From Acidobacteriota bacterium (GTDB lineage Bacteria; Acidobacteriota; UBA6911; RPQK01; JAJDTT01), in NCBI GenBank assembly GCA_965231825.1, contig OZ246889.1:4531692-4595691 (forward strand): DNA of 64,000 nucleotides. Reading direction: 5' to 3'. This document shows positions 3,928-57,414 of this stretch, one piece after another. The position numbers and the translations under genes were made by a program. Below the pieces are notes generated by a model. It made no database searches. It was given only the letters and a program-made list of their open reading frames with translations, and was not told where the DNA came from. Within the stretch, counting starts at the first letter, position 1, and each line of letters starts with the position of its first letter.

Positions 3928-5526
3928 ATGAAACCGCCAATCGACCACCACGTCGACCTGACTGATCACGACATCCAGGTCCGGAGGGTCCTGCGCAACA
4001 TCGCGCCGGCCCAACTTTACGAGGAGGCCCTCAAGTACGACCGGGGTTCGGCGATTGCCGATTCCGGAGCCTTGATCATCTCATCGGGCGCCAAGACGGG
4101 ACGCAGCCCGGGCGACAAGCGGGTCGCCGTTCATCCGGATTCGAAAGACCGGATCTGGTGGGGTTCCGTCAATGTCCCCCTCCAGGAGAACAACTTCCTC
4201 ATCAATCTGGAGCGGGCCGTCGACTACCTCAACACGCGCCCGCGGCTTTACGTCACCGACGGCTACGCCGGCTGGGATTCTCGCTACCGCCTCAAGATCC
4301 GGGTCATCTGCACTCGCGCCTACCACGCCCTGTTCATGTACAACATGTTGATCCGGCCCTCGGAGAATGAGTTGGCAGAGTTCGGCGAACCGGACTTCAT
4401 GATCTACAACGCCGGCCATTTTCCGGCCAACCGCCACACCGCGGAAATGACCTCCAAGACCAGCATCGACCTGAGCTTCGAACGCCGGGAGATGGTGATC
4501 CTGGGAACCGAGTACGCCGGGGAGATGAAGAAGGGCGTCTTCACCGTCATGCACTACTTGATGCCCAACGCGGGGCAGCTCTCGATGCACTGTTCGGCCA
4601 ACACGTCCGCCGAGCTGGACAACGTCGCCCTCTTCTTCGGCCTTTCCGGAACGGGCAAGACCACCCTCTCGGCCGACCCGCGCCGCCGCCTCGTGGGGGA
4701 CGACGAGCACGTCTGGAGTGATCGCGGCGTCTTCAACATCGAGGGGGGCTGCTACGCCAAGTGCATCGGCCTCACTGAGGAAAATGAACCCGAGATCTAC
4801 CGGTCCATCCGCTACGGCACCGTTCTGGAAAACGTGGTCTATGATCCGGACCGGCGTCAGGTCGATTACGACGACAACTCCATCACCGAGAACACGCGTG
4901 CCGCCTACCCCATCGAGTTCATCCCCAATGCGGTGATCCCGTGCCAGGTCGGGCATCCGAGAAACATCATCTTCCTGACATGCGACGCCTTTGGCGTGCT
5001 TCCTCCCGTCAGCCGCCTGACTCCGGACCAGGCCATGTACCACTTCATCAGCGGTTACACCGCCAAGGTGGCGGGGACCGAGGTGGGGGTCACCGAACCC
5101 AGCGCCACCTTCTCGGCCTGTTTCGGTGCGGCGTTTCTGGCGCTGCACCCCAGCCGTTATGCCGAACTGATGGGTGAGAAGATCCAGCGGCACCAATCCC
5201 GGGTCTGGCTGGTGAACACCGGTTGGTCAGGAGGCCCCTACGGCATGGGGAGCCGGTTCTCGCTCCCCCACACGCGGGCCATCATCGACGGGATCCACGA
5301 CGGCAGTCTGGACGAGGCGCCGGCAGTGCGGGACAGGCACTTCGGAATCGACATGATCACCGAGTGTCCGGGGGTTCCCGGCGAGCTGATGGTGCCGGAG
5401 CGGACCTGGTCGGACCGGGGAGCGTACCGCAGAAAGGCACGGGAAGTGGCGGGACTCTTCAAGGCCAACTTCAAGAATTTCGAGCAGGGGACTTCCGCCG
5501 GCATCCGGCAGGCGGGTCCGGCATAG
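3928..5526 (+). CDS. pckA: phosphoenolpyruvate carboxykinase (ATP)
   Basis: 532-aa ORF with the ATP-PEPCK kinase-1a motif GLSGTGKTTLSADP, followed by LVGDDEHVW and NIEGGCYAK. Full length with an ATG start. Confidence 0.95.
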   Translation: MKPPIDHHVDLTDHDIQVRRVLRNIAPAQLYEEALKYDRGSAIADSGALIISSGAKTGRSPGDKRVAVHPDSKDRIWWGSVNVPLQENNFLINLERAVDYLNTRPRLYVTDGYAGWDSRYRLKIRVICTRAYHALFMYNMLIRPSENELAEFGEPDFMIYNAGHFPANRHTAEMTSKTSIDLSFERREMVILGTEYAGEMKKGVFTVMHYLMPNAGQLSMHCSANTSAELDNVALFFGLSGTGKTTLSADPRRRLVGDDEHVWSDRGVFNIEGGCYAKCIGLTEENEPEIYRSIRYGTVLENVVYDPDRRQVDYDDNSITENTRAAYPIEFIPNAVIPCQVGHPRNIIFLTCDAFGVLPPVSRLTPDQAMYHFISGYTAKVAGTEVGVTEPSATFSACFGAAFLALHPSRYAELMGEKIQRHQSRVWLVNTGWSGGPYGMGSRFSLPHTRAIIDGIHDGSLDEAPAVRDRHFGIDMITECPGVPGELMVPERTWSDRGAYRRKAREVAGLFKANFKNFEQGTSAGIRQAGPA

Positions 5527-5625
5527 GAGCGGCGATCTCCTAGTCGCCGACAGGAGCGGCGGTTTCCAACCGCCGAGTTCCGAACGAAGCACGGGGGAAT
5601 GGGCGACTGGAAGTCGCCCCTCCAA
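5526..5625. repeat. REP-like three-hairpin element (type A) between convergent genes
   Basis: Hairpins are CGGCGA-TCTCCTAG-TCGCCG (5530-5549), CGGCGGTT-TCC-AACCGCCG (5557-5575) and GGGCGAC-TGGAA-GTCGCCC (5601-5619). The same order and orientation recur at 21004-21108. The element lies between the pckA stop and the stop of the minus-strand NHL gene. Confidence 0.75.
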
Positions 5626-21003: not shown

Positions 21004-21108
21004 GGAGCGGCGATTTCTAATCGCCGAACTGGAGCGGCGGTTTCCTAACCGCCGGACTCCGGCGTAAACATTTGGCGGTGAGAAATGGGCGATTGGAAGT
21101 CGCCCCTC
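21004..21108. repeat. REP-like three-hairpin element (type A), second copy
   Basis: Hairpins are CGGCGATT-TCTA-ATCGCCG (21008-21026), CGGCGGTT-TCCT-AACCGCCG (21035-21054) and GGGCGA(T)-TGGAA-GTCGCCC (21087-21105). The element is collinear with 5526-5625 and starts right after the TAA stop at 21000. Confidence 0.75.
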
Positions 21109-32623: not shown

Positions 32624-32679
32624 AGAGTCGGCGGCTGGAAACCGCCGTTCCCATTCGGCGGCCGGAGACCGCCGCTCCC
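32624..32679. repeat. REP-like two-hairpin module (type B)
   Basis: AGAGT-CGGCGG-CTGGAAA-CCGCCG-TTCCCATT-CGGCGG-CCGGAGA-CCGCCG-CTCCC lies 5 nt downstream of the minus-strand oxidoreductase stop. Confidence 0.75.
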
Positions 32680-32683
32680 GTGC

Positions 32684-34060: not shown

Positions 34061-34290
34061 TTGCGCGACCAGACACTTGAGAAAGTCTGATCGGAAAGCC
34101 CGGTTACATGGCCGCTGTGGAGAGAACCAATAGCGAACAGGACTGACCTTTTTCCTCGGCTACTTCTCTGCAACGTTGCGTGGTCGTCAACGAAAAGAGA
34201 GCAATATTGTCTACTTATAGTAAATTCTTTACCGTCCACAGACAATCCGACTCCAAAGGAAAGGTGATTTGCCGGTCGTCAGTGCTCGTA

Positions 34291-34349
34291 AGAGTCGGCG
34301 ACAAGAAAGTCGCCTTTCCCATTCGGCGGCAAGAAAGCCGCCGCTCCCC
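34291..34349. repeat. REP-like two-hairpin module (type B)
   Basis: AGAGT-CGGCGAC-AAGAAA-GTCGCC-TTTCCCATT-CGGCGGC-AAGAAA-GCCGCCG-CTCCCC lies 14 nt downstream of the ggt stop (minus strand). It is collinear with 32624-32679. Confidence 0.75.
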
Positions 34350-34362
34350 GTCGATGCTTCCG

Positions 34363-40600: not shown

Positions 40601-40951
40601 CTGGAGGTCGCTGAGGGGTTCGTGGCCCAGGAAGCCGGGGGGCATGCGGGAGGCCGGATCGGGGGTGGAGATCCTTTGGAAGAGGGGGCTCTGGCGGGCG
40701 TCGCCCGGGACTACCGCCGGCCCCTTTCCGTCCCGCTTGGCGGCGATGCCGGCAGCGGTGTCGAGACGCAGGGAGGCTTGGCGCTGGCCCGGGTCGGGGC
40801 CGTGGCAGGAGAAGCATTTCTCGGAGAGGATGGGCCGAATGTCGCGGTTGAAGTCGATGTCGGAGGGAGCGGTTGTCGCAGCCGCCAGTCCCGGGAGGGC
40901 AACTGCCAGACACCAGCCTAAAATGCAGATCCCGGACCGAAGTTCTGGCAT
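37679..40951 (-). CDS. PSCyt (planctomycete cytochrome c) + DUF1549 + LamG-like + DUF1553 protein
   Basis: 1090-aa ORF with signal peptide and heme motif CFSCHGPD. The DUF1549 segment is [13 protein letters not shown], and the [12 protein letters not shown] box is present. A ConA-like insert and a C-terminal DUF1553 region follow. Confidence 0.85.
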
Positions 40952-41050
40952 GATCCCCCGCGGCCATCCCCGGTCGGATGCCGTAGTGACTGTTGCCGAC
41001 GGATGGGAGTTATCTTAGCCAAGCGGGGGTCTTTCAGGCAACGAAACGAT

Positions 41051-41179
41051 AGGAGGAGTGATTTTTAGTCGCCCGTTCGATTGGAAGACGCTGCGCGGAG
41101 TGGGGACTCCGTCCCCCCAAGACCCCCCTAATCGGCGCCTGAAAGACGCCGCTCCTGGCGACAAGAAAGTCGCCGCTCC
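41051..41179. repeat. composite REP-like element (type C), single copy, reverse orientation relative to the 43980-44716 array
   Basis: Aligns to the reverse complement of the 124-bp unit: ...GAAGACGCTGCGCGGAGT-GGGGAC-TCC-GTCCCC-CCAAGACCCCCC...CGGCG-CCTGAAAGA-CGCCG-CTCC, plus GGCGAC-AAGAAA-GTCGCC. Confidence 0.7.
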
Positions 41180-41206
41180 GGCCGGACTCAAGTAGGATGG
41201 CGGCAG

Positions 41207-42517
41207 ATGTTGGAACAAGCGGCGGGCAGCTTGCCGGCGGACGCGGCGCCCGCTTCCCGCCGGGCCGTCGTCTCCTGGTGCTTTTACGATTTCGCCAATT
41301 CCCCCTTCACCACACTGGTGGTGACCTTCATCTACGCATCCTACTTCACCCAGGCCATCGCCCCCGACACGATCTCGGGGACGCTGTCCTGGTCCCGGGC
41401 CGTTACCATAACCGCCGTCGCCGTGGCCCTGCTGTCACCGATTCTGGGGGTGGTCGCGGATCGGGGCGGCTACCGCAAGTTCTTCCTGTTGGTGTGGTCC
41501 GTCGCCTGCGTCCTCTTCACGGCCCTGCTCTATTTGCCCCTCCCGGGCCAGGTCTTCGAGGCCCTGCTCTGGTTCACTCTGGCCAACATCTCCTTCGAGC
41601 TGGCCCTGGTCTTCTACAATGCAATGCTTCCCGACATCGCTCCCCAGGATCGCATCGGGCGCATCTCCGGGTACGGGTGGTCCCTGGGTTACGTGGGCGG
41701 CCTCGCCGCCATGGCCGTGGCCTTCTTCGGATTCGTGGATGCGGAGGTTCCCTGGTTCGGTTTCACCCGGGAGGCCGGCGCCCACATTCGAGCTACGAAC
41801 CTGCTGGTCGCCGCCTGGTTTGCCGTCTTCACCCTGCCCTTGTTGTTCTGGGTACGAGAGACGCAGACTCGAACCCGGTTTTCTTCCCGGATGCTGTTTT
41901 CCTCATTCCGCCACTTAGCGGTCGCCATCCGCGACGTGCGCCGCTACCGGGAGATCACCAAGCTCCTCCTGGCCCGGTTGCTGTACAACGACGGCCTGGT
42001 GACCATCTTCGCCTTCGGGGGGATCTACGCCACCGGGACGTTCGGCTTCACTTTCTCGGAACTGATGATCTTCGGGCTGGCCCTGAACGTGGCGGCCGGC
42101 GTCGGCGCCTTCTTCCTGGGCCACCTGGACGACCGGATCGGCGGGAAGCGGACCATCCAGATCAGCCTCTGTGGGCTTATCATCGCCGCCCTCGTCGCCA
42201 TCCTGACCACCAGCCGCCTCATGTTTTGGGGCGCCTGCATCCTGGTCGGCATCTGCTCCGGTCCCAACCAATCCGCCAGCCGTTCTCTCCTGGGCCGTTT
42301 CGTCCCCCGGGAAAAGGAGAACGAGTTTTACGGCCTCTTCGCCTTTTCGGGCAAAGCGACTGCGTTTCTGGGACCGTTCCTGGTGGGCGTATTGACCAGC
42401 CATTTCGATTCCCAGAGGGTGGGTATGTCGACCATGCTCTTCTTTTTCGCCGCCGGGCTCTGGCTCCTTCGCTACGTGGACGAAGAAAAGGGCTGCCGGG
42501 AGTCGGGAAGGAACTGA
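41207..42517 (+). CDS. MFS transporter, UMF1 family
   Basis: 436-aa polytopic ORF. SWCFYDFANSPFTT is the characteristic UMF1/Atg22-like N-terminal motif. Confidence 0.8.
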   Translation: MLEQAAGSLPADAAPASRRAVVSWCFYDFANSPFTTLVVTFIYASYFTQAIAPDTISGTLSWSRAVTITAVAVALLSPILGVVADRGGYRKFFLLVWSVACVLFTALLYLPLPGQVFEALLWFTLANISFELALVFYNAMLPDIAPQDRIGRISGYGWSLGYVGGLAAMAVAFFGFVDAEVPWFGFTREAGAHIRATNLLVAAWFAVFTLPLLFWVRETQTRTRFSSRMLFSSFRHLAVAIRDVRRYREITKLLLARLLYNDGLVTIFAFGGIYATGTFGFTFSELMIFGLALNVAAGVGAFFLGHLDDRIGGKRTIQISLCGLIIAALVAILTTSRLMFWGACILVGICSGPNQSASRSLLGRFVPREKENEFYGLFAFSGKATAFLGPFLVGVLTSHFDSQRVGMSTMLFFFAAGLWLLRYVDEEKGCRESGRN

Positions 42518-42622
42518 CGCGGCTACAAGACGGGCGGGGTTCGACATCCCCGGTGGGACCGGGTTATCCTTTCGCGGGTTTGTGATTCCGGCGTTTTAGA
42601 AAATCAGTGTGAGGAGAGATTC

Positions 42623-43954
42623 ATGACTCAGAGCGTTGCCACGATAACGGAGAGTTTTCGAGCCCGGACGGCTCGGTCGCGCGAACTGTACGAGGGAGGG
42701 ACCTCGTACACGGCGGGTCCGGCCAAGGGGGCCTACTACTACCGTCCCTATCCTCTCACCATGGACCGGGGAGAGGGCACCCGTCTCTGGGACGTGGACG
42801 GGAATGAATACCTGGATTGCGCCAATCACCACACGGCACAGGTGCTCGGGCACAACCATCCTCGAGTGATGGAGGCCGTCTACGCCCAGATTCCCAGGGG
42901 CTTGGCCGTGGGCGCTCCCATGGGGACGGAAGCCCCCATCGCCGAGGAGATGTGCCGAAGGGTCGACTCCCTGGACCGGATCCGCTTCGTCAATTCGGGA
43001 ACCGAAGCCACCCTGCACGCGATTCGGCTGGCTCGCGGATTTACCGGGAAGACGAAGATCGCCAAGTTCGAAGGGGGCTATCACGGCAGTCATGATGCGG
43101 TGGAGGTCAGTGTCGCGCCGCCTCTGGCCAAGGCGGGTCCGGCCCATGCGCCCAACTCCGTTCCGGGGGCGGGAGGAAGTTCCCCCAGCGTGGCCGACGA
43201 GGTCGTAATCCTGCCCTACAACGACGAAGAGGCGGTGGAACGGCTCATCCTGGAGAACCGGGAAGATCTGGCCTGCGTCATTTTCGATCCCAAGTGCGGG
43301 ATCCTGCGCATCCGCCCCGAATTTGCCCAGGCGGTCCGACGGATCACCCGGGAGAACGGCGTCCTCCTCATCTTTGACGAGATCGTCGCTTTCCGCTCGG
43401 CTCCGGGAGGACTCCAGGCCGTATTCGGCATCGACCCCGACCTGACCTGCTTCGGGAAGATCGTGGGAGGCGGCTTCCCCGTCGGAGCTTTCGGCGGAAG
43501 AGCCGACCTGATGGATCTCCTGGACAGCAGCAAGCCCGGGACCGGGTTTTCCCAGAGTGGGACCTTCAGCGCCCATCCCCTGGCCATGGCGGCCGGCCTG
43601 GCGATGCTCCAGGAACTGACACGCGAAGCCTGCGATCATCTGAACCGGCTCGGGGACCGGCTCACCAACGGCCTCAACCGGATGTTCGCCCGCCAAGGCA
43701 TCGTCGCCCAGGCCGTGAATACGGGCTCCGTCTTCAGCATCTACTTCGGCGACCACGAACTGCGGAACTACCGCGACCTGGCCGCCCTCGACAGCTCACT
43801 CGTGGCCCCCACCTTCCTGGCGCTGCTGGAAGAGGGGTACTTCCTGGGTCACACGCTGGGCATGTGCGCCCTCTCGGTGCCCATGACCGACGACGACATT
43901 GACGGACTCATCGAAGCGACCGGCCGCGCCATCGCCCGAGCCCAAGCCGAATAG
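42623..43954 (+). CDS. class-III (PLP-dependent) aminotransferase / aminomutase family protein
   Basis: 443-aa ORF with GAGGAGAG upstream. DVDGNEYLDC...NSGTEATLHAIRLAR...FDEIV.FR...GKI.GGGFP are class-III aminotransferase motifs (PLP Lys in GKIVGGG). Confidence 0.85.
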   Translation: MTQSVATITESFRARTARSRELYEGGTSYTAGPAKGAYYYRPYPLTMDRGEGTRLWDVDGNEYLDCANHHTAQVLGHNHPRVMEAVYAQIPRGLAVGAPMGTEAPIAEEMCRRVDSLDRIRFVNSGTEATLHAIRLARGFTGKTKIAKFEGGYHGSHDAVEVSVAPPLAKAGPAHAPNSVPGAGGSSPSVADEVVILPYNDEEAVERLILENREDLACVIFDPKCGILRIRPEFAQAVRRITRENGVLLIFDEIVAFRSAPGGLQAVFGIDPDLTCFGKIVGGGFPVGAFGGRADLMDLLDSSKPGTGFSQSGTFSAHPLAMAAGLAMLQELTREACDHLNRLGDRLTNGLNRMFARQGIVAQAVNTGSVFSIYFGDHELRNYRDLAALDSSLVAPTFLALLEEGYFLGHTLGMCALSVPMTDDDIDGLIEATGRAIARAQAE

Positions 43955-43979
43955 AAGCGACTTCCTTGCCGCCGAATGG

Positions 43980-44716
43980 GAGCGGCGGCATCCCTGCCGC
44001 CGACAGGGGGGTCTTGGGGGGAACGGCAGTCCCCACTCCGCGTAGCGTCTTCCCAATAGCCGAATCGAACAACGGGCGATTGGAAATCGCCCCTCCCCTC
44101 AGCGGAGCGGCGGCATCCCTGCCGCCGACAGGGGGGTCTTGGGGGGACGGCAGTCCCCACTCCGCGTAGCGTCTTCCCAATAGCCGAATCGAACAACGGG
44201 CGATTGGAAATCGCCCCTCCCCTCAGCGGAGCGGCGGCATCCCTGCCGCCGGCAGGGGGGTCTTGGGGGGAACGGCAGTCCCCACCCCGCGTAGCGTCTT
44301 CCCAATAGCCGAATCGAACAACGGGCGACCAAAAATCGCCCCTCCCCTCAGCGGAGCGGCGGCATCCTTGCCGCCGACAGGGGGGTCTTGGGGGGACGGC
44401 AGTCCCCACTCCGCGTAGCGTCTTCCCAATAGCCGAATCGAACAACGGGCGATTGGAAATCGCCCCTCCCCTCAGCGGAGCGGCGGCATCCCTGCCGCCG
44501 GCAGGGGGGTCTTGGGGGGACGGCAGTCCCCACCCCGCGTAGCGTCTTCCCAATAGCCGAATCGAACAACGGGCGACTAAAAATCGCCCCTCCCCTCAGC
44601 GGAGCGGCGGCATCCTTGCCGCCGGCAGGGGGGTCTTGGGGGGACGGCAGTCCCCACTCCGCGTAGCGTCTTCCCAATAGCCGAATCGAACAACGGGCGA
44701 CTAAAAATCGCCCCTC
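43980..44716. repeat. tandem array: 6 head-to-tail copies of a 124-125 bp three-hairpin unit (type C)
   Basis: Unit starts are at 43980, 44105, 44229, 44354, 44478 and 44602. The last copy is truncated where it meets the TAG stop at 44717-44719. Unit sequence: GAGCGGCGGCATCCCTGCCGCCGACAGGGGGGTCTTGGGGGGACGGCAGTCCCCACTCCGCGTAGCGTCTTCCCAATAGCCGAATCGAACAACGGGCGATTGGAAATCGCCCCTCCCCTCAGCG. Confidence 0.95.
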
Positions 44717-45760
44717 CTATCCGCTATTGACCACGGTATTCCGATCCTCTCCCTGCAGCGGCAGCTCGACCCAGGCGCCGGAGCGCGCGTGGGAGAGGTG
44801 AAACCCGGCAATCGCTTCCAACGTCTCGACCGCTTCCACAGCCGGATAGGGAAAAGACGCGGTCCCCTCCATCCAATCCACGATCTCACAGACCGCCACG
44901 TCCATCGACGTGGCTTGAGCCCGGGGACTGGGCCATTCCTCGCTACGACCGTCCCAGTACTCCATCCGCACCTCCTCACCTCCCGTGGTGGCCCGACCCT
45001 CGGTGCCATTGAAGCCGATTACCATGGGAACCCGGGCGTAGTCGGCGGCGTCCACGGTCGTCATCAGTCCCCCTTCCAACCGCATCACACCCCATCCTCC
45101 CGGATCCTGAAACGCCGGTCCCCGGCAGTCCGGCTTCCCGGCCAGATCCAGCGTCCCCGAAACCGCCTCCACCCGGCGGCCGGTGATAAGCCGGATGGCG
45201 TCCAAGACATGGGTCCCCACGTTTCCCAGGCGCCCGGAGCTCCACTGGGCCGTCACCGAAGTCAACTCACCCAGACCCCCGGCGGCGATATGGTCCCGCA
45301 GTCTCCGATAATTGGGATTGAACCGCCGGTTGTGGTTGATGGCCAGCAACGACCCGGCTTCGTCGCAGGCCTCCACCATGTCGTGACCGTCGGCCGCGGT
45401 GTTGGCGATGGGTTTCTCGCAGAAAATGGCCCGGACCCCCTGCCGTGCAGAGGCCACCGTCATCTCCTTGTGAACCGGGGTATAGGTGGCGACACTCACG
45501 ATGTCGGGCTTCTCCTGCTCCAGCATCTCCCGCCAGTCCGCATACGTCCCGATCCCGGTCCGTTGGGTGAATCGTTCCCGGCGTCCCAAATCCCGGCTGC
45601 TCCCGGCCACCACCTCGACCCGCGGATGATTGGCCAAGGCTTCGATGTGGGTCCCGTCCAGGTCCACCACCAGCTGACCCAACGCGTCTCCGGAAACCTG
45701 GTCCGCGCCGCCGATGTAGCCCAGACCCATGATCACTGCCCGATGCGATTGATTCGTCAT
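44717..45760 (-). CDS. Gfo/Idh/MocA family oxidoreductase
   Basis: Start moved to ATG 45760 (MTNQSHRAVIMGLGYIGG). The CEKPIA motif is present. Confidence 0.85.
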   Translation of the reverse strand: MTNQSHRAVIMGLGYIGGADQVSGDALGQLVVDLDGTHIEALANHPRVEVVAGSSRDLGRRERFTQRTGIGTYADWREMLEQEKPDIVSVATYTPVHKEMTVASARQGVRAIFCEKPIANTAADGHDMVEACDEAGSLLAINHNRRFNPNYRRLRDHIAAGGLGELTSVTAQWSSGRLGNVGTHVLDAIRLITGRRVEAVSGTLDLAGKPDCRGPAFQDPGGWGVMRLEGGLMTTVDAADYARVPMVIGFNGTEGRATTGGEEVRMEYWDGRSEEWPSPRAQATSMDVAVCEIVDWMEGTASFPYPAVEAVETLEAIAGFHLSHARSGAWVELPLQGEDRNTVVNSG

Positions 45761-45991
45761 TCGTTTCACTCCCAAATAGTTGTCTTACAGTTGTCCAAAC
45801 CGGCCTCAAGATACCGCAAAACGAGGAGGGAGGAGCGGTTGGCCGGTTCTCACTTTTTCTCCCTCTGGTTATGATGGGACGTTCCATCGACAACAATTCG
45901 TCGATCGACTTGGAAACACTTGTGGAATGCCGGTGGGTTCCCTGTCGATCGCCTGTGGATTCCCTGTGAATCCGCGACTGGAGGGATTTCC

Positions 45992-47872
45992 ATGACGGCA
46001 CAACGAACCTGGTTGCCGGTGGCTGCGGCCGCCCTCGCCATCGGATTGACTCTCACCTCCCATGCCCGGCCCCCCGAAGGCCCGATTCAGGTCCGGATCT
46101 GGAAGAACGTCATGGTGCCGATGCGAGACGGCGTCCGCCTGGCCACCGACGTCTACCTGCCCAACGGCGAGACCACGCCTCCCGGTCCCTTCCCCACCAT
46201 CCTCATTCGGCACCCCTACGGGAAGATCAGGTCGGGCGCGACCGGCGAGTTCTTCACCACCCACGGCTACGCGGTGGCGATCCAGGACACTCGTGGCCGA
46301 TACGACTCGGAGGGGGAATTCTACATCTACGTCAACGAGGGCGAGGACGGATACGACGCCGTGGAATGGATCGCCGCCCAATCCTGGTCCAACGGCGACG
46401 TGGGGACCTACGGTGGATCCTACGGGGCCGCCTGCCAGAACGCTCTGGCGGCCCTGAGACCGCCTCACCTGAGGACCATGTTCGCCTACGTGGGCACCTC
46501 CAACTACATCGAGGACGGAGCGGGCCGAGGGGGCGCATTCGCCTTGCTGCACAACATGGCCTACGGGTTCCGCCTGGCGCAGTTGGGAAAGGAGGCCCAG
46601 TCCGCCGAACCCGACCAGGAGGAGGAAACTCCCACCCGCCTGGCCCTGAACCGGGCCAACGAGCAACTGGCGAACTGGCTCATGCGGGCGCCCCTCAAGT
46701 CCACCTCGCCGTTGTCCTGGGCGCCCTCCTACGCCAAGTGGTACGCCGACTGGCGGGCGCATCCCACCTACGACGCCTATTGGAAGCAGAACGGCTACAA
46801 CTTCGAGGAGCGCTACGCCCAATACCCGGACATCCCCATCTGCTTCATCGGCGGCTGGTACGACATCTTCAAGCGCGGGACCCTGAAGAACTTCCAGGGC
46901 CTGTCAGGCCGGCAGGGTTACGTCCATCTGGAGGTGGGACCCTGGACCCACTCCACCGGCCGCACCTACGCCGGGGACGTGGACTTCGGTCCGGAGGTGA
47001 AGATGACGCTCAAGAAGAAGGCGGTGAAATGGTTCGACCAGTTCCTCAAGGGAAAGGACCTGGGCTTGGAGCAGCAGCCTCCAGTCAAGTATTTCGTCAT
47101 GGGCGCCAAAGAGTCGAAGCGCAACGAAAAAGGGAGGCTCCAGAGCGGTGGCGCCTGGAAGAGCTCCGAGGCATGGCCCCCTGCAGGGAGCCGGCAACTG
47201 CGTCTTTATCTGCACGGCGACGGCAGCCTTCGCCGCGAGCCGCCTGGCGAACCGGGTACAAGCGGGTTCGAATACGATCCCAGGCGACCGGTGCCCACCA
47301 TCGGCGGCAACATCGACTCGGGTAAGCAACTGGTGCGCCGCGGCGCTCACAACCAGACCCCCATCGAGGGAGAATTCGCGGCCACGGACCTGCTGCCCCT
47401 CTCTTCCCGCTCCGACGTGCTCTCCTTCCAAACGCCGCCCCTCGAGGAGGACCTGGAGATCGCCGGTCCCATGCGGGTGGAGCTCCGGGTCTCCTCCACG
47501 GCCAAGGACACCGACTTCACGGCCAAGCTCATGGACGTCTATCCGCCCTCTACCGACTATCCGGAGGGGTACGCCATGAACCTGGAGGACGGCATCCTCA
47601 GGATGCGCTTCCGGGAATCTCGGGAACGGGAGCACCTCATGGAGCCGGGCACCGTCTACCGGATCGAAATCGACCTCTGGGACACGGCCAATCGTTTCCA
47701 CAAGGGACACCGGGTCCGCCTGGACATCTCCAGCAGCAACTTCCCCTTCTATGACGTCAACCCCAATACCGGAGAGTTTCTGGGACGCCACACCCATATG
47801 AAGACCGCAGTGAACACGGTCTACCATGCGCCCGATGGAGCTTCGGCGCTGATCCTGACCGTGCCGGAATAG
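45992..47872 (+). CDS. CocE/NonD family hydrolase (X-Pro dipeptidyl-peptidase S15-like), secreted
   Basis: Start moved to ATG 45992, which has GGAGGGA upstream and gives a signal peptide MTAQRTWLPVAAAALAIGLTLTSHA. RDGVRLATDVYLP...RGRYDSEGEF...DGYDAVEWIA...GGSYGA nucleophile region. Confidence 0.85.
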   Translation: MTAQRTWLPVAAAALAIGLTLTSHARPPEGPIQVRIWKNVMVPMRDGVRLATDVYLPNGETTPPGPFPTILIRHPYGKIRSGATGEFFTTHGYAVAIQDTRGRYDSEGEFYIYVNEGEDGYDAVEWIAAQSWSNGDVGTYGGSYGAACQNALAALRPPHLRTMFAYVGTSNYIEDGAGRGGAFALLHNMAYGFRLAQLGKEAQSAEPDQEEETPTRLALNRANEQLANWLMRAPLKSTSPLSWAPSYAKWYADWRAHPTYDAYWKQNGYNFEERYAQYPDIPICFIGGWYDIFKRGTLKNFQGLSGRQGYVHLEVGPWTHSTGRTYAGDVDFGPEVKMTLKKKAVKWFDQFLKGKDLGLEQQPPVKYFVMGAKESKRNEKGRLQSGGAWKSSEAWPPAGSRQLRLYLHGDGSLRREPPGEPGTSGFEYDPRRPVPTIGGNIDSGKQLVRRGAHNQTPIEGEFAATDLLPLSSRSDVLSFQTPPLEEDLEIAGPMRVELRVSSTAKDTDFTAKLMDVYPPSTDYPEGYAMNLEDGILRMRFRESREREHLMEPGTVYRIEIDLWDTANRFHKGHRVRLDISSSNFPFYDVNPNTGEFLGRHTHMKTAVNTVYHAPDGASALILTVPE

Positions 47873-47990
47873 CCGCACAGCCTCCGGCAAGCGGCCCGGT
47901 GCAGAGCCGAAGTGTTACAATCTGCGGGCCGGCGAAACCGGGATCACGCCGGCCACGGCACATTCCACGAAGTTGCGGAGAAAAGGACCC

Positions 47991-48389
47991 ATGCGAAGAT
48001 TCACGATTCGACTCGTCCTGAGCCTGTTCGGCAGCGGCCTGCTCCTGTTGGCCGCCGGCACCCACGACTGGGAGGCCCCCGAAGAGGCCAAGAAGATGAA
48101 GAACCCCCACGCGTCCACCGACGAAGCCATGACCCTGGCCAGGACCCAATACGACGAGAACTGCAAGTTCTGCCACGGTGAGACCGGCGGGGCGGATGGT
48201 CCGGTGGCGGGAATGCTCAAAGAAAAGCCCCCTTCGTTCAAAGATGCCGAAGTCATGGCCAAGGTCACCGACGGTGAACTCTTCTGGAAGATCACCAACG
48301 GAAAAGACCCCATGCCCGGCTACCAGAAGAAGCTCTCCGACGAGGAGCGGTGGCAACTGGTGAACCTCATCCGAACCTTCAACAAATGA
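47991..48389 (+). CDS. monoheme c-type cytochrome (class I), secreted
   Basis: Start moved to ATG 47991 (signal MRRFTIRLVLSLFGSGLLLLAAG). It has a single CKFCHG heme motif, and PMPGY supplies the distal Met. The stop overlaps the next start (ATGA). Confidence 0.8.
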   Translation: MRRFTIRLVLSLFGSGLLLLAAGTHDWEAPEEAKKMKNPHASTDEAMTLARTQYDENCKFCHGETGGADGPVAGMLKEKPPSFKDAEVMAKVTDGELFWKITNGKDPMPGYQKKLSDEERWQLVNLIRTFNK

Positions 48390-50287
48390 ACCGCCCGTTC
48401 GGGATGAAGGTCCCCATCGACCGCCGTCACTTTCTGAAGACGAGTTCCGCGCTGGCCGCCGTATGGAGCGCCTGCGCACCCGCCAGGCAAGCTGTGGACC
48501 CGGCCGCCCGGGAATGGCAGCACTATGGCGGAGACGCCGGCGCCGGCCGCTACTCGCCCCTCGACCAGATCAACCGGACCAACGTCTCCGAGCTGAAGGT
48601 GGCCTGGACCTACCGGACCGGGGACGCCCTCCAGCGTCCGTCCACCACCATCGAGTGCACACCCATCGTGGTGGACGGCCGCATGTACGTCTCCACCGCC
48701 ACACTTCAGGTGCACGCGCTGGATGCGGCCACAGGCCGGAAACTCTGGAGCTTCGACCCCCACGGCGGGAAGCCGCTGCGGGGTTCCCCCGGGGTCAACC
48801 GGGGAGTCACCTACTGGCAGAACCCGGACCGGGCCGACGACCGCCGTATCTTCATGCCGGTCAGGGACATGCTCTATTCCATCGACGCCGGGACCGGGAA
48901 GCTGACTCCCGGATTCGGCCAGGACGGAGTCATCGACCTGAAGGAAGACTTCGACCACGAAATGACCGGACTCTCCTTCAACTTGACCAGTCCGGTGGTG
49001 GCGTACCAGGGCCTGATCATTGTGGGAGGCGGCGGCGCGGAGGGACCCTATCCGGAGGCGCCGGGCCACATCCGCGGCTACGACGCCGCCACCGGCGAGC
49101 GGCGCTGGATCTTCCACACCACCCCTCGTCCCGGCCAGTTCGGAAACGACACCTGGGAGGGTGACTCGTGGAAGACCACGGGCGGGACCAACAACTGGGG
49201 CGGCATGAGCCTGGATCCGGCACGGGGCTGGGTCTTCGCCTCCATCGGCTCGCCCGCCTTCGACTTCTACGGGGGCAACCGCAAGGGGGCCAATCTCTTC
49301 GGCAACTGCGTCCTGGCGCTGGACGCCTCCACCGGGGAGCGGAAATGGCACTTCCAGACCGTCCACCACGACGTTTGGGACTACGACCTTCCGTGCCAGC
49401 CGGCCCTGATCAACATGACCCAGGGCGGAAGGACCTTCGAGGCGGTGGTCCAGCCCACCAAGATGGGGATGGTCTTCTTCTTCGATCGGGAGACGGGCAA
49501 ACCGGTCTTCCCTGTGGAAGAGCGGCCCATGCCCGCCTCGGACGTTCCGGGCGAGGAGCTGTGGCCGACCCAGCCCTTCCCCGTGAAGCCCCCGCCCCTG
49601 AGCCGGCAGGGGTTCATGCCGGACCAGATCACCGACATCTCTCCCGAAGCCCACGCCCACGTCAAGGAGATCTACGACCGCTCCCGCGTCGGGGCCCTCT
49701 ACACTCCGCCCAGCCTCCAGGGGACCATCATCCATCCCGGTTTCCGGGGCGGCGCCCTCTGGGGAGGATGCAGCCACGACCCGGCGGCCAACCGGCTCTT
49801 CGTCAACACCAGCGAATGGACCAACCGCATCACGCTGGCGCCGGCCAAGGAGGATCAGCCCTTCGACTACGCCCTTCCGGAACGCGCCCTGTTGCAGGAC
49901 CCGGAGAAATACCCGGCCATCAAGCCCCCGTGGGGCTACCTGACGGCCATCGATCTGGACTCGGGGGATTTCGCCTGGCGGGTGGTGGCGGGAGAGATTC
50001 CGGAGCTGGAGGCGCGTGGAATCACCGGGACGGGGAGCCCCATGCACGGTGGGACCATCGCCACGGCCGGAGGCCTGATCTTCGTGGGTGGATCCTTCGA
50101 CAAGAAGTTCCGGGCCTACGATTCCGGCAACGGGCGGGTGGTCTGGGAGCATCAATTGAACGCCGGCGGCTTCGCCACACCGTCCACCTACGAGGCGGAG
50201 GGCCGGCAGTATGTGGTCATTGCCGCCGGGGGCGGCCAGGCCGCTTCCAATTCGGGCGATGAATTCGTGGCCTTCGCGCTGGCTTGA
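48386..50287 (+). CDS. PQQ-dependent dehydrogenase (glucose/quinate-type 8-bladed propeller), Tat-exported
   Basis: Start at ATG 48386 with Tat-like DRRHFLKTSSALAAV. YSPLDQINRTNVSELKVAWTY and the repeated W-docking motifs are typical of PQQ quinoproteins. Confidence 0.85.
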   Translation: MNRPFGMKVPIDRRHFLKTSSALAAVWSACAPARQAVDPAAREWQHYGGDAGAGRYSPLDQINRTNVSELKVAWTYRTGDALQRPSTTIECTPIVVDGRMYVSTATLQVHALDAATGRKLWSFDPHGGKPLRGSPGVNRGVTYWQNPDRADDRRIFMPVRDMLYSIDAGTGKLTPGFGQDGVIDLKEDFDHEMTGLSFNLTSPVVAYQGLIIVGGGGAEGPYPEAPGHIRGYDAATGERRWIFHTTPRPGQFGNDTWEGDSWKTTGGTNNWGGMSLDPARGWVFASIGSPAFDFYGGNRKGANLFGNCVLALDASTGERKWHFQTVHHDVWDYDLPCQPALINMTQGGRTFEAVVQPTKMGMVFFFDRETGKPVFPVEERPMPASDVPGEELWPTQPFPVKPPPLSRQGFMPDQITDISPEAHAHVKEIYDRSRVGALYTPPSLQGTIIHPGFRGGALWGGCSHDPAANRLFVNTSEWTNRITLAPAKEDQPFDYALPERALLQDPEKYPAIKPPWGYLTAIDLDSGDFAWRVVAGEIPELEARGITGTGSPMHGGTIATAGGLIFVGGSFDKKFRAYDSGNGRVVWEHQLNAGGFATPSTYEAEGRQYVVIAAGGGQAASNSGDEFVAFALA

Positions 50288-50798
50288 GCCGGGTTCCCGG
50301 GGCCGGCGCCTGGGAGCCGCGGCGCTGGTTCTGGTCCTGGGCGCCCTGTCCGGGGCGGCCCGCTCGGAGGACAAGGCGCCGGAGCCTCAGCCCATCCCCT
50401 TCAGCCACAAGGTCCATGCGGCCGCGGGCTTGAAGTGTGCCTTCTGTCACCCCATCGAGGAACCGGGGTTCTCGGCGGGACTGCCCGCCGAGTCCAAGTG
50501 CATGGTCTGCCACACCGCCGTCAAGAGCGACAGTCCGGACATCCTGAAGCTGGCTAAAGCCGCCAAAGCGGGCGAGACGATCCCCTGGGTGCGGATCTAC
50601 CGGGTGCCCGACTACGTCTGGTTCTCACACGCCTTGCACGCCGTGGACGCCGAGATCGAATGCGCCGCCTGTCACGGCCCGGTGGCGACGCGGGAGGTGT
50701 TGGTGCAGGAGAAGCCGACATCGATGGAATTCTGCATGGACTGCCACGCGGCCCAAAAGGCCTCCAACGGCTGCGAAGTTTGTCACCTGCGGCAGTAG
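50259..50798 (+). CDS. pentaheme c-type cytochrome
   Basis: In-frame ATG 50259 gives signal MNSWPSRWLEPGSRGRRLGAAALVLVLGALSGAARS and overlaps the upstream gene by 29 nt. Five CxxCH motifs: CAFCH, CMVCH, CAACH, CMDCH, CEVCH. Confidence 0.75.
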   Translation: MNSWPSRWLEPGSRGRRLGAAALVLVLGALSGAARSEDKAPEPQPIPFSHKVHAAAGLKCAFCHPIEEPGFSAGLPAESKCMVCHTAVKSDSPDILKLAKAAKAGETIPWVRIYRVPDYVWFSHALHAVDAEIECAACHGPVATREVLVQEKPTSMEFCMDCHAAQKASNGCEVCHLRQ

Positions 50799-50874
50799 GG
50801 GCACCCTTGTGGGTGCCCTCTTCCGTCCCACCTGCCGTCGCGCTGCCGGAGGGCGACCACAAGGTCGCCCCTAC
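50795..50874. repeat. REPIN-like inverted doublet of GTAG-initiated hairpins
   Basis: GTAGGGGCACCC-TTGT-GGGTGCCCTC (50795-50820) matches the reverse complement of GAGGGCGACC-ACAA-GGTCGCCCCTAC (50849-50874). The two differ only by two compensated base pairs. A 28-nt spacer separates them. Confidence 0.8.
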
Positions 50875-50964
50875 GATGCGAAGGCCCGATGTCGGGCAGC
50901 TTGGCATTGGGGCCAGGTCGCCCGTACTTTCACCGTCCACCGCAGAATGGCAATATACGGAACC

Positions 50965-52815
50965 ATGAAATCCAGCATACGATGCAAATACACTTTTCTC
51001 CTGCTCCCGCTTTTATTGGCCGCGGCCTGCGTCCCGGCGCCCGATCCTTCGGCCGACAACGACTGGCGTCACTACGGCAAGGACCCCGGCGGGACCAGAT
51101 ATTCCGCCCTGGCGCAGATCAACCGGACCAACGTCCAGGAACTGGAGGTGGCCTGGATCTACCGCATGGGGGAGGTGAAGCGCCCGCATCGGACCATCCC
51201 CGACCGGATGCAGGCTCCGTGGGAGACCACGCCTCTGGTGGTCGATGGAGTCCTCTACCTGTCCACCCCTTCCAACCGGGTGATCGCCCTGGAGGCGGAG
51301 ACGGGCCGGGAACTCTGGGAGTTCGACACGCAGGAAGGCAGCGGCGACGACCGTTATTACCTCCAGCACCGGGGGGTCTCGTACTGGGAGGGAACCGTCG
51401 ACGGACAACCCCAGCGGCGGATCCTCATGGGGACGGGAGACGCCAGGCTGTTCGCGCTGGACGCAGAGACGGGGCAGTTGATCCCCGAGTTCGGCGAGGA
51501 GGGGTGGGTGGACCTGGACGGGGGCATGACCACGCGCTGGCCCAAGAGCATCTACACGGTCACGTCCCCGGTGGCCGTCTACAAGAACGTGGTGGTCACG
51601 GGCTCCCGGCTCAGCTCCGGCCAGGAGGACAAGGGTCCCAGCGGCAAGGTCCGGGCCTGGGACGTCCTCACGGGCGATCTGGTCTGGGAGTTCCACACCG
51701 TTCCCCGGCCCGGCGAACCGGGAAACGAGACCTGGGAAGGAGACTCCTGGAAGGACCGTTCCGGAGCCAACGCCTGGTCCATCATCAGCGTGGACACGGA
51801 GCGGGGCTGGGTCTTCGTCCCCACGGCGTCGCCCCTGGGGCCCGACCGTGACGGTCAGAACCTGTACGGAAACACCCTGCTGGTGCTGGACGCCCTCACC
51901 GGAAAACTCGTCTGGCACTACCAGGCGGTCCGCCATGACACATGGGACTACGATCTCCCGGCCCAGCCGGTGCTGGTGACCCTGGAACAGGACGGTCGCG
52001 TGGTCCCGGCGGTGGCGCAGCCCACCAAGATGGGGATGGTCTTCGTTCTGGATCGGGAGACCGGCGTGCCCGTGCTCCCGGTGGAAGAGCGCCCGGTGCC
52101 CCAGACCGGGGGCGGTTACAACTGGCCCACCCAGCCCATCACCGTCAAGCCGCCGCCCCTGGTTCGGCACAACCTGACCCGGGACGAGGTGAGCCGGGTG
52201 ACCCCCGAATCCTACGAATTCTGCCTGGAGCTCTTCGACTCGCTCCACTACGAGGGGATCTACACGCCTCGGCAAGAGGGGCCGACCCTCATGCTGCCCG
52301 GATCCCTGGGCGGAGCCAACTGGTCGGGAGCCTCGTTCGATCCCACGACCGGGATCCTCTACGTGAACGTCACCGAGTTGGGGAACGCGCGCGGCGCGGG
52401 CCGCCGCTTCTGGCAGGACAACAAGTGGCCCTGCCAGGCGCCCCCCTGGGGGACTCTCAACGCCGTGGATCTGAACCGGGGCGAGATCGTCTGGAAGAGC
52501 ACCCTCGGCGTGGTGGACGAGCTGATGGAGAAGGGGGTCCCGCAGACGGGGACCCCGAACCTGGGCGGATCCATCGTCACGGCCGGCGGGTTGGTCTTTA
52601 TCGGGGGCACTAACGATCAGCGGTTCCGGGCGTTCGATTCGGCCTCCGGAGAGGAGCTCTGGGTCGATCTCCTGGAGGCCAACGCCCACGCCACTCCCAT
52701 GACCTTCTGGGGTGAGAAGACGGGCAAGCAGTACGTGGTGATCGCCGCGGGTGGGGGCAACGTGTTCAGCAACGTCACGTCCGACGGGTTGGTGGCGTAC
52801 GCGTTGCCGGATTGA
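50965..52815 (+). CDS. PQQ-dependent dehydrogenase, lipoprotein paralogue
   Basis: Start at ATG 50965 (MKSSIRCKYTFLLLPLLLAAACVP; alternative ATG 50947). YSALAQINRTNVQELEVAWIY. The protein is collinear with 48386..50287. Confidence 0.85.
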   Translation: MKSSIRCKYTFLLLPLLLAAACVPAPDPSADNDWRHYGKDPGGTRYSALAQINRTNVQELEVAWIYRMGEVKRPHRTIPDRMQAPWETTPLVVDGVLYLSTPSNRVIALEAETGRELWEFDTQEGSGDDRYYLQHRGVSYWEGTVDGQPQRRILMGTGDARLFALDAETGQLIPEFGEEGWVDLDGGMTTRWPKSIYTVTSPVAVYKNVVVTGSRLSSGQEDKGPSGKVRAWDVLTGDLVWEFHTVPRPGEPGNETWEGDSWKDRSGANAWSIISVDTERGWVFVPTASPLGPDRDGQNLYGNTLLVLDALTGKLVWHYQAVRHDTWDYDLPAQPVLVTLEQDGRVVPAVAQPTKMGMVFVLDRETGVPVLPVEERPVPQTGGGYNWPTQPITVKPPPLVRHNLTRDEVSRVTPESYEFCLELFDSLHYEGIYTPRQEGPTLMLPGSLGGANWSGASFDPTTGILYVNVTELGNARGAGRRFWQDNKWPCQAPPWGTLNAVDLNRGEIVWKSTLGVVDELMEKGVPQTGTPNLGGSIVTAGGLVFIGGTNDQRFRAFDSASGEELWVDLLEANAHATPMTFWGEKTGKQYVVIAAGGGNVFSNVTSDGLVAYALPD

Positions 52816-52824
52816 ACGGATGGC

Positions 52825-53694
52825 TCAGCCGATGTCACTCTCATCCAATTGCTCGGAAGCGACGTTTTTCCAGATAAGGGCCAGATTGAATAGGTAGATG
52901 ATGGAGCGCGTGAGGCGTTCCGCGTCTGACATCTCAAACCGGCGGGCGTGCGCAATATGGTTTCTGTGGTCGTTCATTGTGCGAAGCACGTAGGACGCCT
53001 TCGGAACCGAACCCGTGGGCAGCAGGCCTTCCGCCTGCAGCCGGGAGACGTATTCCGGAAAACTGGATCTGGCCCGGCCTTCCACTCCCAGCATCTGGCT
53101 GATGTTCCTCCGGATTTCCTCATGAGTGCTCTCGACAAACTCCCGGGGATACATTATGGGTTCCATTTCCCTCATCCAGACCTTGAAGGAGGGATCTCCC
53201 GACACCTGAAACGCCAACTCCTTGAGCAACTTTTCCAGGTCCCGGAGATTCGTTCGCTCAGTGAGATCGACTTCACCGTCGCTTCCTGACTCAGAGGGCT
53301 CGAATGCCCCCTCGACCAGACGTTGCGTTTTCCGAGTCGACTTCTCGACGTTGTCCACGATGCTCAGAAGCGTCTTCACCCCTTCATCGAGGTTTTCCAA
53401 ACGTTTCCGCACCGTTGCTTTGCCGGGCTTCGCGGCGGCGGGCGCCGGAGGCGGGAGCCGTTTCGAGGCGGGTTCTCCGAGTTTGAAAATTGCGGCGTCG
53501 CGTCCGAATTCTTTCTTCAACGCGCGATAACACGCCATCGTCTTCGGATACACCCAACGGGTCCTTTTCGGATCCCAGCGGCGGCCGGGGATCCTTTTGG
53601 CTCGCTCCTTGTCACCGGGAGCGATCTTTACTTCATAGTCCTCTTTTGTCTCCGTGACTTCGATGGGAAAGAAGTTGCCTCTTGGAAATGGCAT
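52825..53694 (-). CDS. hypothetical protein: HARP-like N-terminal domain + coiled-coil linker + C-terminal HEPN-like (DUF4145-type, Rx4H) domain
   Basis: 289-aa ORF with visibly lower GC. The N-terminal FFPIEV...YEVKI....KRIPGRRWDPKRTRWVYP...Y..L resembles HARP / integrase-arm-type beta modules. The C-terminal LRTMNDHRNHIAHARRF carries R-N-H-I-A-H (52948-52965), an Rx4H HEPN-type motif. Confidence 0.5.
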   Translation of the reverse strand: MPFPRGNFFPIEVTETKEDYEVKIAPGDKERAKRIPGRRWDPKRTRWVYPKTMACYRALKKEFGRDAAIFKLGEPASKRLPPPAPAAAKPGKATVRKRLENLDEGVKTLLSIVDNVEKSTRKTQRLVEGAFEPSESGSDGEVDLTERTNLRDLEKLLKELAFQVSGDPSFKVWMREMEPIMYPREFVESTHEEIRRNISQMLGVEGRARSSFPEYVSRLQAEGLLPTGSVPKASYVLRTMNDHRNHIAHARRFEMSDAERLTRSIIYLFNLALIWKNVASEQLDESDIG

Positions 53695-53745
53695 TTTCAG
53701 TCAGACGGCCACGACGCCGATCCCGCGCATCGGCGGCGGATCGAT

Positions 53746-54573
53746 TCAGTAGACCTCGGGAACGAACCGCTGGATGCCCATGGGTGGACGAACGTAGCCG
53801 CCGTCCTCCTGGCGGGGCGGGAGCTCCATCTCGGGCGGGTCTTCCTGGTTGTAGTCGAACCGGCTCAGCAGGTGGGAGATGCAGTTGAGACGGGCCCGGC
53901 GCTTGTCGTCGGCGTTGACCACATACCAGGGTGCTTCGGGTGCGTCCGTCTTGTCGAACATGGCGTCCTTGGCCTTGGAGTACTCCACCCAGCGCAACCG
54001 GGACTCCAGATCCATGGGACTCAGCTTCCAGCGCTTGCGCGGATCCTTGATCCGGGCCTGGAAGCGGCGTTCCTGTTCCTCGTCGCTCACCGAGAACCAG
54101 TACTTGATGAGATGGACGTGAGAGCGGAGCAGCATCCGCTCGAACTGGGGGCAGGAGTAGAGGAATTCCCAGTACTCCTCTTCCGTGCAGAACCCCATGA
54201 CCCGTTCGACTCCGGCCCGGTTGTACCAGCTCCGGTCGAAGAGCACGATTTCGCCGGCGGCCGGGAGATGCGCCACGTAGCGCTGAAAATACCACTGGGT
54301 CCGCTCGCGTTCGGTCGGCTTGGCCAAGGCGGCCACGCGGACCTGGCGAGGGTTCAGCGTCTGGATAATCCGCTTGATGACGCCCCCCTTGCCGGCGGCG
54401 TCCCGTCCCTCGAAGAGGACCACGACCTTGAGGCCCTCCCGGGCCACCCAGTCCTGGAGCTTGGTCAACTCCACTTGCAGCCGCCGGAGCTCCGCTTCGT
54501 AGTACTTCCGCTTCAGACGCGGGGAACCCTTTTCCAATCCGCCGCCGGCGGTCGAGTCGGCCTGGTCGTTCAT
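53746..54573 (-). CDS. ppk2: polyphosphate kinase 2
   Basis: The ORF-track start 54585 is TTG. ATG 54573 (MNDQAD) with GGAGGAGAGG upstream is preferred. Walker A FEGRDAAGKGG, plus DRSWYNR and KRWKLSPMD, are PPK2 signatures. Confidence 0.9.
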   Translation of the reverse strand: MNDQADSTAGGGLEKGSPRLKRKYYEAELRRLQVELTKLQDWVAREGLKVVVLFEGRDAAGKGGVIKRIIQTLNPRQVRVAALAKPTERERTQWYFQRYVAHLPAAGEIVLFDRSWYNRAGVERVMGFCTEEEYWEFLYSCPQFERMLLRSHVHLIKYWFSVSDEEQERRFQARIKDPRKRWKLSPMDLESRLRWVEYSKAKDAMFDKTDAPEAPWYVVNADDKRRARLNCISHLLSRFDYNQEDPPEMELPPRQEDGGYVRPPMGIQRFVPEVY

Positions 54574-54600
54574 CCTCTCCTCCAAAACGAAAATACCAGT

Positions 54601-57252: not shown

Positions 57253-57414
57253 GAGGGGCGGCTTTCTTGCCGCCTGCTGGGAGGGGACATCCTTGTCCCC
57301 CATTCTTCATTTCGCCCGGTTGAAAGACGCTACGCGGAGTGGGGACTCCGTCCCCCCTAATCCCCCCTGTCGGCGGCAAGGATGCCGCCGCTCCCCGGCG
57401 ACAAGAAAGTCGCC
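57253..57414. repeat. REP-like hairpin cluster including one type C copy (reverse orientation)
   Basis: GGCGGC-TTTCTT-GCCGCC (57257-57274), GGGGAC-ATCCTT-GTCCCC (57283-57300), then GAAAGACGCTACGCGGAGT-GGGGAC-TCC-GTCCCC...CGGCGGCA-AGGA-TGCCGCCG and GGCGAC-AAGAAA-GTCGCC (57397-57414). Confidence 0.75.

Follow-up and report, generated by a model that had tools for sequence, protein, structure and literature searches.

REPs are short (20-40 nt) palindromic repeats of a well-known, selfish, intergenic type that owe their spread to a transposase of their own, the REP-associated tyrosine transposase (RAYT). In Escherichia coli, BIME-2 elements consist of Y and Z2 REPs that alternate, are joined by linkers with conserved motifs, and are repeated in tandem, and BIMEs are bound by the host proteins gyrase, Pol I, and IHF. 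E. coli REPs protect 3' ends or attenuate read-through. Di Nocera et al. (2013, PMC3733652), whose background covers part of what is known of BIME-2, described a super-family of GTAG-tagged REPs that occurs across prokaryotes, forms dimers 20-100 bp apart that are tandemly reiterated, and is associated with Y1 tyrosine transposases. In Pseudomonas fluorescens SBW25, the replicating unit is a REP doublet, or REPIN (Bertels and Rainey 2011, PMC3116915). The same study observed ordered tandem clusters of near-identical REPINs, the largest containing four REPINs and exceeding 700 bp, and found REPIN clusters beside each RAYT (PMC3116915).

Here we analyse a 739-bp block of head-to-tail repeats, with a unit of 124/125 bp, in the genome of a soil Acidobacteriota. 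The block lies within a 64-kb stretch of DNA, which was analysed as a whole and is referred to below as the window. Our results indicate that the block is very likely a tandem cluster of the BIME or REPIN type in which a REP doublet is present six times. The hairpins of these units are members of a genome-wide extragenic REP family.

Results

Organisation of the array

Tandem Repeats Finder reported an array at 43979-44717 with a period of 124, 5.9 copies, and 96% matches (score, 1341). A second solution for the same array, with a period of 249, 3.0 copies, and 97% matches, corresponds to a higher-order pattern at the level of the dimer. A first-pass annotation, made from the sequence alone, had described six copies with starts at 43980, 44105, 44229, 44354, 44478, and 44602, and had attributed to each copy three hairpins, a G6-TCTT-G6 tract, and an invariant core. 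Our analysis found the same six-copy array, the starts were recovered in direct-repeat family D4, and the internal elements can be seen both in the sequence and in an alignment of the six units, which differ from each other by mosaic substitutions and one indel (Table 1). The repeats had also been said to fill the entire convergent spacer, and indeed all of the spacer DNA is repeat derived. The spacer retains no unique sequence because the ca. 25 nt that precede unit 1 are a decayed REP1, while the last CTCC, which is the tail of REP2 in unit 6, shares one base with the stop codon of the oxidoreductase gene (44717-44719). At the position orthologous to the decayed REP1, locus L008 of a relative carries an intact REP (TAG-GAGCGGCGAC...GCCGCCG).

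Each unit consists of two REPs separated by a long linker. REP1 is a GGAG-headed imperfect palindrome (GGAG-CGGCGGC-ATCCCT-GCCGCCG), and REP2 is a palindrome of a sister type in inverted orientation (GGGCGAT-TGGAA-ATCGCCC-CTCC), the reverse complement of which begins GGAG-GGGCGAT. The linker between them, of about 70 nt, comprises a G-run, a short hairpin (GGGGAC-GGCA-GTCCCC; hairpin B), and the core ACTCCGCGTAGCGTCTT; its conserved part extends over ca. 45 nt and reads G6-N4-G6, hairpin B, ACTCCGCGYAGCGTCTT. The array thus has a BIME layout of REP1, 70-nt linker, inverted REP2, and 7-nt linker, repeated six times. The conserved tetranucleotide at the head of these REPs is GGAG and not the canonical GTAG, and a GTAG-headed form, GTAG-GA(A/G)CGGCGGC, was seen only in loci L034 and L035 of the relatives.

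Table 1. Coordinates of the array, its flanking genes, and related elements in the window, with the content of the orthologous spacer in relatives
Feature	Position in window	Strand	Remarks
REP1-REP1-short linker-inverted REP2 cluster	5526..5623	+	array's REP family, without the 70-nt linker
REP1-REP1-short linker-inverted REP2 cluster	21004..21105	+	array's REP family, without the 70-nt linker
Single doublet copy	41038-41164	-	covariance-model score 110.8 bits; divergent spacer; 12-nt linker deletion
Extra REP1 beside the preceding doublet copy	41157-41179	-	
Upstream flank, class-III aminotransferase (Aminotran_3)	42623..43954	+	Pfam PF00202, E=1.7e-56; TAG stop 43952-43954
Decayed REP1 hairpin	43955..43978	+	directly after aminotransferase stop; aligned in direct-repeat family D4
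Unit 1 (REP1 - linker with hairpin B - inverted REP2)	43979..44103	+	
Unit 2	44104..44227	+	
Unit 2, REP1 (GGAG + hairpin)	44104-44127	+	
Unit 2, G6-TCTT-G6	44131-44146	+	
Unit 2, hairpin B	44143-44158	+	
Unit 2, core	44152-44175	+	
Unit 2, inverted REP2	44198-44216	+	CTCC tail 44217-44220
Unit 3	44228..44352	+	
Unit 4	44353..44476	+	
Unit 5	44477..44600	+	
Unit 6	44601..44717	+	terminates in REP2 CTCC tail
Convergent flank, GFO/IDH/MocA oxidoreductase (GFO_IDH_MocA)	44717..45775	-	Pfam PF01408, E=1.4e-20
Single doublet copy	57265..57403	-	covariance-model score 146.8 bits; divergent spacer; adjoins group II intron
Orthologous spacer, L008			three REP1s, one unit, an extra REP2
Orthologous spacer, L036			three REP1s, linker with G-run and hairpin B but without core, one REP2
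Orthologous spacer, L034 and L035			three GTAG-tagged REP1s, unrelated 31-nt linker, two REP2s
Orthologous spacer, L037			1.2-kb unrelated insert and REP2s

The REP family in the window

The hairpins of the array recur elsewhere in the window. A pattern for the GGAG REPs, GGAG[CG]GGCG-N9-10-CGCC, matches at 24 places in the 64 kb, where 0.08 would be expected, and the pattern for the 24-nt core has 8 matches against 0.00 expected. Twelve of the GGAG-REP matches fall within the array and the other 12 are distributed over eight further sites. When gene boundaries were taken from a crude gene caller, 11 of these 12 non-array matches were located between called genes and one (62878-62899) inside a doubtful called ORF. 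At two of the sites the REPs are grouped as clusters in which the short linkers are unrelated to the 70-nt linker of the array (5526-5623 and 21004-21105). The first-pass annotation had also listed two diverged single copies of the unit in the opposite orientation, and both were recovered as minus-strand doublets with the covariance model described below (Table 1).

A second composite REP family (...GTCGCAAGAGTCGGCGG-TTGGAAA-CCGCCGCTCC) is present at positions 31109-31226, 32546-32690, and 34269-34354 of the window. The unit of this family is similar to those of 74 nt and 85 nt that make up a 13-copy array beside a RAYT gene in locus L038.

Searches for other known elements

A search of 43900-44800 with all 4227 Rfam families produced no match at the gathering level, the best being mir-1182 with 21.6 bits against a gathering threshold of 90, and this is in keeping with the earlier statement that the unit was not recognisable as a described RNA family. 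Over the whole window, the only matches at the gathering threshold were pieces of a group II intron located outside the array. The Acido-1 RNA (RF01686) was rejected, having scored 16.7 bits against a gathering threshold of 50 and with one hairpin only. A coding function was rejected, as the ORFs that run through the array lack a Pfam match and the period of the array cannot be divided by three. A CRISPR array, which the first-pass annotation had already discounted, is likewise excluded by the contiguity of the units, which are 96% alike and have no unique spacers between them. A scan for promoters and terminators detected no sigma-70-like promoter and no terminator-like sites (the latter on both strands of 43700-45000), consistent with the earlier view that the unit is not a canonical terminator.

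Copies in related genomes

Dozens of copies of the doublet are scattered over related Acidobacteriota genomes. A scan for the core pattern in one genome per species returned 33 loci, all of them in six Acidobacteriota MAGs and most in OY764083.1, an Acidobacteriota MAG that is the closest public genome found (93-96% nucleotide identity to positions 40664-57585 of the window); the same pattern had no match in metagenome contigs. With an nhmmer profile and the covariance model, we identified 46 full doublet copies in the fetched DNA, including at least 28 in OY764083.1 (in the sampled 8-kb blocks) and others in five further Acidobacteriota MAGs. The weaker covariance-model matches are REP1..REP2 doublets with other linkers.

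All of the doublet copies are intergenic. After removal of tandem duplicates, 13 lie between convergent genes, 11 between divergent genes, 8 in a co-directional arrangement, and 7 antisense to both neighbours, and this occurrence in all four orientations is at odds with both a 5'-UTR element and a terminator. On their left side, copies often have between one and three REP1s, and on their right side between one and three inverted REP2s. In OY764083.1, plus- and minus-strand copies are interleaved (e.g., in the order -,+,+,+,-,+,+,-,-,+ between 3.09 and 3.19 Mb), and hence nothing points to insertion that is specific to one replication strand. The 24-nt core is identical across the six species-level genomes, those copies having been found with that very pattern.

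Turnover in the orthologous spacer

The spacer turns over rapidly, and both its content and the number of doublets within it vary between close relatives. The orthologous spacer of OY764083.1 contains two units versus the six of the window, and several other states were observed in loci whose flanks are 86-91% identical to the window (L008 and L034-L037; Table 1). Three of these loci (L034, L036, and L037) were reached via a flanking protein rather than with the core pattern and hence provide an unbiased view, which is that the REPs persist and the linker does not. In L034 and L036, the REPs and hairpin B have been kept while the core sequence has not.

The insert of ca. 1.2 kb in the spacer of L037 (positions 2850-4040 of that locus) is partly of lower G+C content than its surroundings. 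Loci L034 (6704-8470) and L035 (5479-7245) carry, between the oxidoreductase gene and a peptidase S15 gene, a 588-aa gene with Pfam matches to DruA, DDE_Tnp_1_assoc, and DDE_Tnp_1 that is absent from the window.

The other two doublets of the window also have counterparts in relatives. Orthologous copies of the doublet at 41 kb are found in L021, L008, and L030, the loss of 12 nt from the linker being a feature of the window copy, and orthologous copies of the doublet at 57 kb are found in L025 and L015. All three doublet sites of the window are occupied in the compared relatives (85-96% identity). As no precise empty site, and hence no clean pair of filled and empty sites, was recovered among the relatives compared at these three sites, we infer mobility from dispersal.

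RAYT genes in relatives

Related genomes encode a RAYT that is flanked by GGAG REPs, and in one relative this gene is situated inside the orthologous spacer. A tblastn search with E. coli TnpA-REP as the query (its sequence checked against PDB 4ER8) gave one match, in OY764083.1, to a Y1_Tnp remnant (Pfam E=2e-8) that is truncated at its N terminus and abuts a doublet copy in locus L007. Several homologues of this remnant carry the JGI name 'REP element-mobilizing transposase RayT', and a full-length homologue of 186 aa, P0122, matches the NCBIfam equivalog REP_Tyr_transpos with 80.1 bits against a cutoff of 80 bits. The gene for P0122 sits inside the orthologous oxidoreductase/aminotransferase spacer of L038, the flanks of which are 86-88% identical to the window. 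It is bordered by inverted GGAG REPs, which read ...CCGCCGCTCC at one end of the gene and GGAGGGACGAT... at the opposite end. Adjoining it is a tandem array of another REP-containing unit, 85 nt in length and present in 13.0 copies. The gene for P0121 in L039 likewise lies between inverted GGAG REPs. A search of the 64-kb window by tblastn with E. coli TnpA-REP and the acidobacterial RAYTs found no RAYT gene.

The surroundings of the remnant in OY764083.1 have undergone a local duplication (L007 2100-4700, corresponding to 3122100-3124700 of the contig), such that there are two doublets, each followed by an HTH (XRE-type) gene. The remnant lies on the opposite strand and abuts the second of the two doublets.

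Conservation and folding of the hairpins

A covariance model with three hairpins was built, and the 46 copies were re-aligned to it. In this alignment 92.9% of cells pair, as against 42-66% when the partners are slid, and the covariation score was reached by none of 500 shuffles. Changes on both sides of a pair are apparent in each REP: pair 19/56 of REP1 is GC in 16 copies, AU in 15, and UG in 14, and pair 154/171 of REP2 is GC in 18 and CG in 13. Hairpin B has changed from GGGGGAC/GTCCCCC to GGGGGGC/GCCCCCC in L034. The extent of pairing, these compensatory changes, and the altered hairpin B together argue that the hairpins are under constraint, as expected of REPs that are recognised as stem-loops in either DNA or RNA.

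When folded as single-stranded DNA, the window unit and the L009 copy form three local hairpins and not one long REPIN hairpin; the two ends of the L024 copy pair with each other in the minimum-energy fold. RNAfold also proposed long-range pairings of the G-run with CCCCTCC and of GGGGGACG with CGUCUUCC, in columns that are near-invariant and partly fixed by the search pattern. In comparison with shuffles, whole units folded modestly better both as RNA (z scores of -1.7 and -1.4) and as DNA (z scores of -2.3 to -2.6).

Other features of the window

A group II intron of 657 nt, too short to contain a gene for an intron-encoded protein, is located at 56596-57252 on the minus strand (Rfam scores of 86.6 bits for D1-D4-3, 43.6 bits for D1-D4-1, and 40.5 bits for domain V/VI). 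Its first nucleotides, GTGCG, immediately succeed a REP hairpin, and a further copy of that REP comes after the intron. A block of 686 nt, comprising the intron and one 28-nt REP, is absent from OY764083.1 (L025) and from L015, and no second copy of the intron was found in the fetched DNA. Class C introns use terminator stem-loops as insertion sites. The position of this intron between REP copies, together with its absence from relatives, suggests that REP stem-loops may serve as insertion sites for group II introns in a similar manner.

Two neighbouring genes at 48350-50287 and 50809-52815, encoding proteins of 645 and 668 aa with stretches that are 71-73% identical (direct repeats D3 and D7), are probably tandem paralogues. 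A direct repeat of ca. 315 bp with 80% identity (D6 and D10) occupies 9582-10103 and includes a 12-nt tandem repeat at 9955-9987. Positions 52809-53441 do not align with OY764083.1, which is otherwise 93-96% identical, and overlap a minus-strand ORF of 289 aa (52825-53694).

Discussion

Three roles had been offered for the array in the first-pass annotation, i.e., a REP/BIME-like amplified element, a processed structured RNA array, and a protein-binding scaffold. Our evidence favours the first of these, and in this respect the earlier reading stands. The idea of a processed structured RNA array is not supported, as the sole argument for it comes from hairpins of a REP family that also occurs alone elsewhere.

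The linker poses a separate question. Conservation of the core across six genomes exceeds what a purely selfish linker would need, but this conservation is in part an artefact, as the copies were collected with the core pattern itself. The conserved stretch of ca. 45 nt in the linker could conceivably be a functional module, for example a structured small RNA or a site bound by a factor of the host or by one associated with the RAYT, although we regard this as unlikely. E. coli BIME-1 offers a comparison for a linker as a binding site, as it has an IHF site in its L motif. If the linker were such a module, then tandem arrays at the RAYT 'home' spacer might serve as scaffolds or maintain a stock of master copies.

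Another proposal is that each unit encodes a small structured RNA, which would make the array an RNA locus that is either multi-copy or processed. Under this view the linker is functional and the hairpins provide its structure. The compensatory changes that maintain the three hairpins, the identity of the core in copies from six genomes, and the folding of the units as DNA, which is modestly above that of shuffles, all speak for such a gene. The z scores for folding as RNA, however, are only -1.7 and -1.4, no Rfam family reaches its gathering threshold, the array lacks a sigma-70-like promoter or a terminator, and the copies occur in all orientations relative to genes. Moreover, two of the three hairpins are REPs that are also found alone and with other linkers, L034 and L036, which were not obtained via the core pattern, retain the REPs and hairpin B but have lost the core, and the invariance of the core is partly due to the search pattern. 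We therefore consider an RNA gene very unlikely.

It might also be argued that the sixfold copy number is an artefact of assembly and that the true locus has one or two units. The copy number does come from a single assembly, the exact proteins of the flanking genes have no record elsewhere, and a pattern for the unit junction had no match in metagenome contigs. A collapsed or inflated assembly is nonetheless highly improbable because the units are distinct mosaic variants with one indel and a clean higher-order period of 249 bp, the block of 739 bp is well within the length of one long read, and related long-read genomes hold two units at this position, as in the closest relative, or 13 of another repeat. 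That the unit is a conventional MITE, i.e., a non-autonomous element with terminal inverted repeats that descends from a DDE-type insertion sequence and was amplified locally, is scarcely credible, for although the unit ends are inverted repeats of ca. 60-80% (GGAG...CTCC) and dozens of intergenic copies are dispersed, these ends are hairpins that vary in number from site to site (one to three REP1s and one to three REP2s), no target-site duplication is evident in the flanks, and the transposase beside such ends is a Y1 HUH RAYT and not a DDE enzyme.

If the array is a cluster of REP doublets, its history may be envisaged as follows. The doublet would have spread by the action of a RAYT on REP hairpins in single-stranded DNA, and unequal recombination between units, or slippage between them during replication, would then have enlarged the local array from approximately two units to six. 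The 249-bp period suggests that the last steps of this expansion may have been duplications of a 249-bp dimer. This period, and the presence of two units in a relative versus six in the window, also lend weight to the unequal crossing-over or gene conversion put forward in the first-pass annotation. By analogy with E. coli REPs, the stem-loops, which lie at the 3' ends of both convergent transcripts, probably protect these ends or attenuate read-through, and any role of the array would probably be of this kind, at mRNA 3' ends, rather than that of a dedicated RNA gene.

Our findings add a REP/RAYT system with a composite doublet and tandem clusters for the Acidobacteriota, a phylum for which we found no description of REP families in the literature searched. 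They also reveal a natural series of states at one orthologous spacer, i.e., a RAYT with 13 repeats, REPs only, and one, two, or six doublets, which could be used to study the rise, decay, and expansion of REP clusters around the 'home' site of a RAYT. There is in addition a warning for annotation, namely, that arrays of this kind in high-GC MAGs represent selfish repeats and should not be annotated as RNA genes, CRISPR arrays, or ORFs.

Among the known systems, the Acido-1 RNA resembles the array in being from Acidobacteria and in having a GC-rich hairpin that aligns to REP1, but the match is limited to model positions 43-62 of 64. E. coli BIME-2 shares with the array two REP sub-types in alternating orientation, conserved linkers, a head-to-tail arrangement, and an extragenic location at the 3' ends of genes; one of the linkers of the array is, however, ca. 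70 nt in length as compared to ca. 10-30 nt, and there is no sequence similarity. The GTAG super-family (PMC3733652) shares with our elements stem-loops that have an unpaired conserved tetranucleotide at one end, as well as dimers that have the tags on the outside, are spaced by 20-100 bp, and are tandemly repeated along with adjacent DNA, and an association with Y1 tyrosine transposases, but the window and most copies carry GGAG as the tag, with GTAG confined to the L034/L035 lineage.

In comparison with the REPINs of SBW25, the array differs in that its two REPs are of distinct sub-types with a GGAG and not a GTAG head, in that the spacer of 70 nt is conserved and has a hairpin of its own, in that the window units form three local hairpins and not one long hairpin, and in that the host belongs to the Acidobacteriota, with a RAYT seen in relatives only. 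Both systems are built on a doublet of inverted REPs with a spacer, the REPs being roughly 70-110 bp apart. In both, dozens of copies are scattered through extragenic DNA, near-identical doublets form ordered tandem clusters together with their flanks, and clusters adjoin a RAYT gene. The novelty implied in the first-pass annotation cannot be upheld, as tandem clusters of REP doublets, including ones of more than 700 bp and ones adjacent to a RAYT, had already been described (PMC3116915 and PMC3733652). The array is a further example of these clusters and represents no new kind of biology.
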